DNA from: Legionellales bacterium
GTDB lineage: Bacteria; Pseudomonadota; Gammaproteobacteria; UBA1113
Assembly: GCA_002707205.1 (NCBI GenBank)
Contig: PAMH01000034.1
Coordinates: forward strand, 47,337 to 111,336
Reading direction: 5' to 3'
DNA length: 64,000 nucleotides
In this document: in pieces, positions 17,222-18,241 of the stretch
How positions within the stretch are numbered: the stretch's first letter is position 1
Layout: each line of letters opens with the position of its first letter
Notes under the pieces: generated by a model
Seen by the model: only the letters and a program-made list of their open reading frames with translations
Database searches by the model: none
What the model was told of the DNA's origin: nothing
Made by a program: the position numbers and the translations under genes

Positions 17222-18205
17222 ATGATGAAGAATTTCTCAATTATCATTGGAACATTATTAGCCGCTTCAAATTTATATGCTGGAAATACTGGTAATCAAG
17301 TTCAAGCACCCACTGGGGTTAGTTTACAAGCACCAAAAAGTGAAAGTGCTTGGTCATTTGGTATTGAAGCACTTTACATGAAGCCTAGTAATGCAACTTT
17401 TCAGTATGTGCAGATTTCAAATCAAAGCACGCCAACGCAGACACATCAAAATAACTCAGTGAATCCTAGTTCAGATTGGGGTGGCGAGTTTGATGCAACT
17501 TATCATTTTGCTGGTAATAGCCGAGATATCGAAGTTGCATTAATGAATTTAGATGTCGATAATACTGGCAGTACTCAAATACAAGACGGACAGATGTCTG
17601 ATCCTTTTGGTATTTCAAACCGATTTACAGATAGTGCAAATGCAGACATGGATAATAGTGTTGATGCAGTTGATGTTGTATTTGGTCAAACTTTTAAAAT
17701 AGGACCAGTAGTTACCATGCGTCCTTTTGGCGGTGTACGTTATGCCGATTTAGAAAGCAATAATGTTGCCCAATATTTTAATTCTCAAGCGAGTGCACCT
17801 GCCCAAGGCAATGGTAGAATAAATTCAGAGTTTGTTGGTTTTGGTCCAAGAGCTGGATTAGATGCAAGTTTCCATGTGAGTTCTCGTATTAGTGTTGTGG
17901 GAACAGTGGGGGCTTCATTGTTAGTCGGTGATATTGATACTAAATTGACAACGACAGCATATCAAGATAATCCGCAAATTATTGATAATAATGAGTCACG
18001 TGCGAGTGTGCCAGAATTGGATGCAAAGCTTGGTATTAATTATCAACAAAAGTTAAGTGCAAATAATTCACTTGATATTCAAGTTGGATATCAAGTGGTT
18101 GATTATTTCGATGTAATCAATAAAGACTTTATTGATGCATCAACTATTAACACAGTGAGCAACAGTGATGATTTGGGTTTTCAAGGGCCTTATATTCGTG
18201 CATAA
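17222..18205 (+). CDS. MOMP family paralog 3. It is truncated by a premature stop just before the C-terminal beta-strand and may be a pseudogene.
   Basis: Ends ...GPYIRA* where the paralogs have GPYLRLQVNLA. In frame after the TAA lies LNIV then a second stop, so the stop replaces a Gln codon. Confidence 0.7.
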   Translation: MMKNFSIIIGTLLAASNLYAGNTGNQVQAPTGVSLQAPKSESAWSFGIEALYMKPSNATFQYVQISNQSTPTQTHQNNSVNPSSDWGGEFDATYHFAGNSRDIEVALMNLDVDNTGSTQIQDGQMSDPFGISNRFTDSANADMDNSVDAVDVVFGQTFKIGPVVTMRPFGGVRYADLESNNVAQYFNSQASAPAQGNGRINSEFVGFGPRAGLDASFHVSSRISVVGTVGASLLVGDIDTKLTTTAYQDNPQIIDNNESRASVPELDAKLGINYQQKLSANNSLDIQVGYQVVDYFDVINKDFIDASTINTVSNSDDLGFQGPYIRA

Positions 18206-18241
18206 TTAAATATCGTTTAATCTTCAGACAAGGATGTAGTT

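Follow-up and report, generated by a model that had tools for sequence, protein, structure and literature searches.

A premature stop codon five codons from the end of one gene in a tandem array of Legionella-type porin genes from an uncultured marine Legionellales bacterium

The five-gene array and the P3 stop codon

The window, that is, the whole stretch of 64,000 nucleotides analysed here, includes five tandem plus-strand genes, P1 to P5, every one of which matches PF05150 (Legionella_OMP) far above threshold. In the third gene, P3, a TAA codon replaces a conserved Gln codon close to the 3′ end. The features of the array are as follows, where L008 is a JGI contig of 45.8 kb that carries a related array.

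14757–15782, plus strand: P1, intact ORF matching PF05150, product ending GPYLRLQVNLA; 74% identity to L008 gene 1.
15924–16970, plus strand: P2, intact ORF matching PF05150, product ending GPYLRGVLTFI; 62% identity to L008 gene 2.
17211–17216, plus strand: Shine-Dalgarno-like AGGAAG read from the sequence, with the P3 ATG 5 nt further on; putative ribosome-binding site.
17222–18205, plus strand: P3 (paralog 3), a Legionella-type MOMP gene truncated at the C-terminus and otherwise intact; ORF of 327 aa matching PF05150, product identical to NCBI MAZ39956.1.
18203–18205, plus strand: premature TAA of P3, in place of the conserved Gln codon (CAA/CAG); the orthologue has CAG, and window P5 and L021 have CAA.
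18206–18217, plus strand: vestigial TTA AAT ATC GTT (LNIV), once the last four codons of P3; same peptide in the orthologue, 11 of 12 bases identical.
18218–18220, plus strand: ancestral TAA stop of P3, aligned to the stop of the orthologue.
18242–19255, plus strand: P4, intact ORF matching PF05150, starting 36 nt past the P3 stop.
19429–20445, plus strand: P5, intact ORF matching PF05150, product ending GPYLRVQVSMA; 74% identity to L008 gene 4.

Positions 18185–18205 read GGG CCT TAT ATT CGT GCA TAA, and the P3 product thus ends in GPYIRA. In an alignment of the paralogs, P3 is five residues shorter than P1, P2, P4 and P5, all of which end in GPY-x-R-x-x-x-x-x-x. The N-terminus of P3, read from the sequence and the paralog alignment, is MMKNFSIIIGTLLAASNLYA/GN..., with APTGV conserved; it may comprise a signal peptide. 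The P3 ORF has no further stops or frameshifts, and the stop site has no homopolymer or repeat. P3 scores 209.7 bits against PF05150 (E = 5.5e-62), exceeding the gathering cut-off of 25.4. The match spans profile positions 2–276 of 281, and those of the other four paralogs reach positions 277–280. The sequence of P3 and the fold of its orthologue (see below) place the gene in the Legionella MOMP family.

The bases downstream of the premature stop still spell LNIV and a second stop, in frame, exactly as the preliminary description of this DNA had it (18206–18220). Among the 8,496 stop triplets on both strands of the window, the 18203 site is the sole one followed by LNIV and a stop, whereas a family-like four-residue tail with a stop follows eight. 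Because just one of the 8,496 shows LNIV-stop, its presence downstream of the P3 TAA is not due to chance.

A hairpin scan found no terminator-like site between P3 and P4. Given the 36-nt gap without such a site, P3 and P4 are probably co-transcribed. A strong terminator-like hairpin lies 3′ of P1 at 15815–15844, with a 13-bp stem followed by a run of T. A TTG start listed for P2 at 15825 falls within this hairpin; the ATG at 15924, the start called in other assemblies, is more likely to be the P2 start. A promoter scan of the window was uninformative, with 24 promoter-like sites against 25.2 in shuffled sequence. Elsewhere in the window, near 61963 on the plus strand, a separate ORF ends in ...LALQGFNLTLRYQFG and a stop, which resembles the C-terminal strand of an outer-membrane protein (a regular-expression match only).

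The orthologue and the ancestral C-terminus

Among 5.8 billion proteins, the closest homologue of P3 apart from identical copies is P0002, a protein of 335 aa with 55% identity (55.5% pairwise) and the C-terminus GPYFRAQLNIV. P0002 is encoded by the third gene of the Legionella_OMP array on L008. The order of genes is shared between L008 and the window: folK, an MFS transporter gene and miaA, followed by the OMP array. By identity, the array members pair reciprocally as P1/g1 (74%), P2/g2 (62%), P3/g3 (55.5%) and P5/g4 (74%). Synteny and the pairwise identities both pair P3 with g3, and P0002 is for these reasons, as judged from sequence, the positional orthologue of P3. The L008 array has four genes to the window's five. 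P4 has no positional orthologue there; its best matches are P5 (60%) and g4 (57%).

The 3′ end of the P0002 gene reads GCG CAG TTA AAT ATT GTT TAA, and the corresponding bases of the window read GCA TAA TTA AAT ATC GTT TAA. The preliminary description had proposed that the P3 TAA is a nonsense change at a Gln codon and had predicted the C-terminus lost through it. The orthologue bears out both points: it carries CAG at this site, where Gln is conserved, and ends RAQLNIV, an exact match to the prediction. At the homologous codon, window P5 and a P5-like gene on a further contig, L021, use CAA, and because of this usage the P3 stop would most simply have arisen from CAA by one C-to-T transition to TAA.

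The length of the C-terminal tail across the family

The extent of the tail was surveyed in sets drawn from the family, the first of which held 178 proteins, roughly 165 of them complete. This set includes 150 representatives that a profile search recovered from 1.84 billion proteins. In about 80 of 84 proteins of the marine clade closest to the window, the number of residues following GPY is exactly eight, and the pattern is GPY-x-R-x-[Q/E]-x-x-x-x. The lowest number in about 240 proteins of the family is seven, against three in P3. Tails shorter than seven residues were seen in P3's own copies and in one further protein, P0007 (on contig L010; see below), and in no other. Thus, P3 lacks a complete C-terminal tail, which is a family-wide feature of PF05150. 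The near-invariant length points to long-term selection against shortening. The preliminary description had allowed that orthologues might end naturally at the position of the P3 stop; none of those in the survey do.

The native end of the clade is ...R-x-Q-L-N-[LIV]-[AV], that is, alternating aliphatic residues with no aromatic residue, and the P3 truncation removes them.

The collected proteins include polypeptides with three Legionella_OMP domains (P0032–P0035, P0037 and P0039, about 1,044–1,104 aa) or two (P0055, P0065, P0066 and P0070, about 650–715 aa). Three of these, P0032–P0034, were read; they have complete barrels, linkers of ~20 residues and no internal signal peptides. Since the L. 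pneumophila MOMP (9NH1) is a trimer, a three-barrel fusion of this kind would amount to a covalent trimer; outer-membrane proteins with more than one barrel are known from computational studies. At greater distance, PF05150-like genes with 23–24% identity, ending FGYCGPYLRIGVGF, were found at L019:6001–6912 and L020:6001–6894, carried by a Simkaniaceae (Chlamydiota) MAG and by an uncultured bacterium. The family thus reaches beyond the Legionellales, into other protist-associated bacteria.

The TAA codon in separate assemblies

The 327-aa product of P3 occurs in identical form on 13 contigs from separate Tara Oceans assemblies. Eight contigs were read at the DNA level, namely, seven of the 13 and one JGI-held Tara contig, and all eight have TAA. 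The assemblies concerned are ERR868486/PRJEB4352, ERR594289/PRJEB1788, ERR599211, two TARA_SAMEA samples, ERZ27287086, ERZ836445 and CESC01164867. The JGI contig, CESC01164867.1 (Tara station 78), was the one contig returned by a pattern search of the JGI metagenomes in which the stop codon was replaced by NNN. It reads TAA, and no CAA allele of P3 was found in that scan. The 90%-identity cluster of P3, drawn from about 15 billion proteins, holds proteins of 327, 327 (one P30S variant), 326 and 67 aa; a 332-aa allele is absent from it. The preliminary description had entertained a sequencing error. With TAA in eight contigs of separate assemblies and the longer allele absent, a one-off sequencing or assembly error is excluded. 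RNA editing and phase variation were also considered as causes of the stop and were set aside, as the stop is in the DNA and no repeat lies at the site.

Seven of the eight contigs match the window at 100% identity, with 0 mismatches along 1,739–6,984 bp. Because SNPs are wholly absent among the contigs, the source population is nearly clonal. All sampled contigs derive from Tara Oceans, possibly from neighbouring sites, so the word "fixed" carries limited weight when applied to this allele. The absence of mismatches was read for window positions 14222–21205 against the seven Tara contigs L001–L007, over up to 6,984 bp; so clonal a population is unusual among marine bacteria and may be in line with life in association with a host.

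What the stop codon removes

The structure determined in situ for L. pneumophila porin I, 9NH1, which was assigned to Lpg2961, is a trimer of 10-stranded barrels that protrude ~25 Å from the membrane (10.1101/2025.06.23.660953). The family profile matches 9NH1 with E = 1e-80. An AlphaFold2 model of truncated P3 made without an alignment was unusable (pLDDT 28.7); the fold comparison concerns the full-length orthologue. The model of P0002, from an alignment of 28 sequences, has a mean pLDDT of 82, and its top Foldseek match is 9NH1 (E = 3e-17, TM-score 0.82–0.84, target-normalised). That is, the full-length orthologue has the 10-stranded barrel fold of 9NH1 in this model. The N-terminal helix spans residues 2–20, and the last strand spans residues 318–334 (17 residues).

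The P3 stop takes away the equivalents of P0002 residues 331–335 (Q-L-N-I-V). The statement in the preliminary description that the stop removes the C-terminal β-strand therefore goes too far: the final five residues are lost, but 12 of the 17 strand residues remain, by the orthologue model. Barrel C-termini face the periplasm and the 9NH1-like barrel projects outward; for these reasons, we infer that the lost residues would form the periplasmic, inner-leaflet half of the membrane-spanning seam strand, where it pairs with the start of strand 1. The C-terminus of the last strand of an outer-membrane protein is the site of the β-signal, which docks on BamA strand 1 and BamD, nucleates folding, and is important, if not always indispensable, for efficient BAM-mediated folding; some outer-membrane proteins rely on internal signals instead (PMC13067283).

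The age of the mutation

Of the 15 bases that follow the P3 stop, 14 match the orthologue (11 of 12 in the tail plus the old stop). Gene-wide, P3 and P0002 share 63.9% of bases, and at third codon positions 48.8%. If these bases had been non-coding over most of the period since P3 and P0002 diverged, such a match would be unlikely: a simple, post hoc binomial calculation gives about 0.01 for 64% identity and about 4e-4 for 49%. Because the orphaned codons and the old stop are nearly untouched and other lesions are absent, the nonsense mutation is, by sequence comparison, recent relative to the split of the P3 and P0002 lineages.

Relative-rate tests with four outgroups indicate that the P3 lineage is not significantly faster (p = 0.16–0.57); for a recent mutation, such tests have low power. 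Where the four outgroups are invariant, 20 changes are unique to P3 and 11 to P0002, a weak trend by simple count. For a mutation this recent, the data are uninformative on any relaxation of selection elsewhere in P3. A scan of the GTDB species representatives with the P3-clade alignment returned no relative, and a scan with a broader alignment returned distant relatives only, at ≤48% identity. As these scans yield no closer orthologue, the mutation is not dateable by one.

A possible second case

The other short-tailed protein, P0007, is a P5-like protein with 88% identity to window P5, encoded on a 1,029-bp contig (L010; JGI 3300048744, Ga0496913_014475). Positions 1012–1014 of this contig are TAA at the homologous Gln codon, and the reading is GPYLRV-TAA-GTA TCT ATG GCT, with the VSMA codons intact. 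Window P5 (20433–20435) and the sister allele P0244 (L021), which is full length and 98% identical to P0007, read GPYLRV-CAA-GTA TCT ATG GCT-TAA. The L010 stop would be an independent Gln-to-stop change in a different paralog and organism, and could indicate that such changes are tolerated. It may also be an assembly-end error. The case is given little weight because it rests on a single contig in which 16 nt separate the stop from the end and the final base is deviant, and it is discounted further because the search could recognise only truncations in the last ~9 codons. Its use as strong evidence of tolerance was set aside on account of the contig end and of the CAA being the sole transition-type nonsense site there. 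A scan of all collected loci for a third Gln-to-stop case found none.

Possible consequences for P3

We consider it probable that P3 is a recently fixed hypomorphic or null allele, carried by a clonal population and buffered by four intact paralogs. The events would be as follows. At the fifth codon ahead of the ancestral P3 stop, the conserved Gln codon mutated to TAA, so that the product lacks the last five residues (Q-L-N-I-V) of its ~17-residue terminal strand. Loss of the periplasmic strand end and of the BamA/BamD docking site would then lead to poor assembly or none, because the lost residues lie where outer-membrane proteins carry the BAM-docking signal. The four intact paralogs of the same array would buffer the loss of P3, and drift or hitch-hiking in the near-clonal population would have fixed the allele. 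A small effective population size would be in keeping with the usual association of Legionellales with protist hosts. The preliminary description's idea of a decoy gained no support.

The impairment of the product may be anything from mild to strong. As a counterpoint to the reading of P3 as hypomorphic or null, the end of the family, L-x-[LIVM]-[AV], differs from the canonical E. coli GXX-aromatic-X-aromatic signal. Given this aliphatic end, and the use of internal signals by other proteins, the five residues may matter less here. The choice of site bears on the same point. The P3 stop is one of 29 GC-to-AT nonsense transitions, and one of 126 nonsense substitutions, available to the restored gene. 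The site would be an improbable one if any knock-out were acceptable, and a tolerated truncation is therefore favoured over a random knock-out. Among the last nine codons, the Gln codon alone can become a stop by a transition. This agrees with a model in which drift can fix a truncation only at the extreme C-terminus, where its effect is mild enough.

A rival proposal is that the truncated P3 is fully or largely functional, the loss of five residues being nearly neutral, an outcome that we regard as rather unlikely. The rest of the gene is intact and has a good ribosome-binding site, the lineage shows no significant rate acceleration, 12 of the 17 last-strand residues remain, and the stop occupies the only transition-type nonsense site near the end; the L010 stop, if real, adds a possible second independent instance. 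Near-neutrality is hard to reconcile with a tail length that is otherwise almost invariant in the family and never below seven residues, or with the position of the removed residues, which would lie within the membrane at the end of the seam strand, where the BAM signal is usually found. Moreover, both truncated alleles, P3 and L010, look very young, as deleterious variants would.

A further proposal takes the two stops together, that is, Gln-to-stop at the conserved codon would be a recurrent, tolerated or even selected weakening of individual MOMP paralogs. We hold this to be unlikely. If it were true, a single T-to-C change could revert the allele, and these porins would assemble without the last five residues and without a C-terminal BAM signal.

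It is quite unlikely that the loss or weakening of P3 was itself selected and spread in a sweep, for example because a phage, a predator or a host factor recognised this surface protein. Phages often use porins as receptors, the allele is in all sampled contigs with no other polymorphism over about 7 kb, and P3/g3 is the most divergent orthologue pair of the array (55%, against 62–74% for the others). However, fixation needs no selection in a clonal population, a knock-out favoured by selection could lie at any point of the gene, which makes a site five codons from the end unexpected, and a phage or interaction partner is without support.

Readthrough of the TAA, or its recoding as Gln, would yield both short and full-length products and would explain why the downstream LNIV-stop is perfectly preserved. 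The preservation is expected from a recent mutation alone, however. TAA is the prevalent stop among the long ORFs of the window (29 of 44), and a T commonly comes next (10 ORFs). The window has no tRNA gene, hence no suppressor tRNA there, and we know of no TAA-to-Gln recoding in the Legionellales. Readthrough or recoding is thus very improbable.

Last, that the TAA is an error and the true P3 has CAA is hardly conceivable: a metagenome-assembled source genome is all that speaks for it, against TAA in at least eight separate assemblies citing different ENA runs and projects, a P3 cluster without the 332-aa allele, and a site outside homopolymers and repeats.

Comparison with known systems

The MOMPs of L. 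pneumophila (Lpg2961, Lpg1974 and Lpg2960; PF05150; 9NH1) resemble the P3 family in fold, through the orthologue, and in the presence of several paralogs per genome. They are trimeric porins that surround the Dot/Icm machine and are anchored to peptidoglycan (10.1101/2025.06.23.660953; PMC11841132). P3 is only about 22–28% identical to Legionella proteins, and its clade, which is marine and uncultured, has the fixed end GPY-x-R-x-Q-x-x-x-x; unlike other members of the MOMP family, it is without its last five residues.

Engineered mutants offer a second comparison. PhoE without its terminal Phe, an outer-membrane protein mutant that lacks the C-terminal β-signal, is reportedly the subject of work by Struyve et al. 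in 1991. Mutants of the PhoE type share with P3 the loss of the extreme C-terminus of the last strand. In contrast to them, P3 is a natural allele, and the end of its family is aliphatic (…L-N-I-V), so the size of the defect in E. coli is not transferable.

Finally, P3 is similar to the incipient pseudogenes of redundant surface-protein families in host-associated bacteria, with one disabling substitution in one member of a tandem array, an otherwise intact ORF and very low population diversity. It differs from them in that the lesion lies five codons from the end, so that a near-full-length product is possible, and in that neither a second lesion nor rate acceleration is detectable. A natural C-terminal nonsense allele in a redundant porin array is an event of known kind, newly documented for P3.

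Implications

The P3 event is ordinary early decay or weakening in a redundant gene family and not a new mechanism. MAZ39956.1 and its copies are deposited as "hypothetical protein", yet they represent a truncated allele of a Legionella-type porin and are to be flagged as such in comparative or structural use. P3 shows, cleanly and in a form that can be dated, how decay or weakening begins within a redundant surface-protein array, in an uncultured and apparently clonal marine member of the Legionellales. The allele also offers a possible natural experiment on whether porins of this family depend on their extreme C-terminus to assemble.
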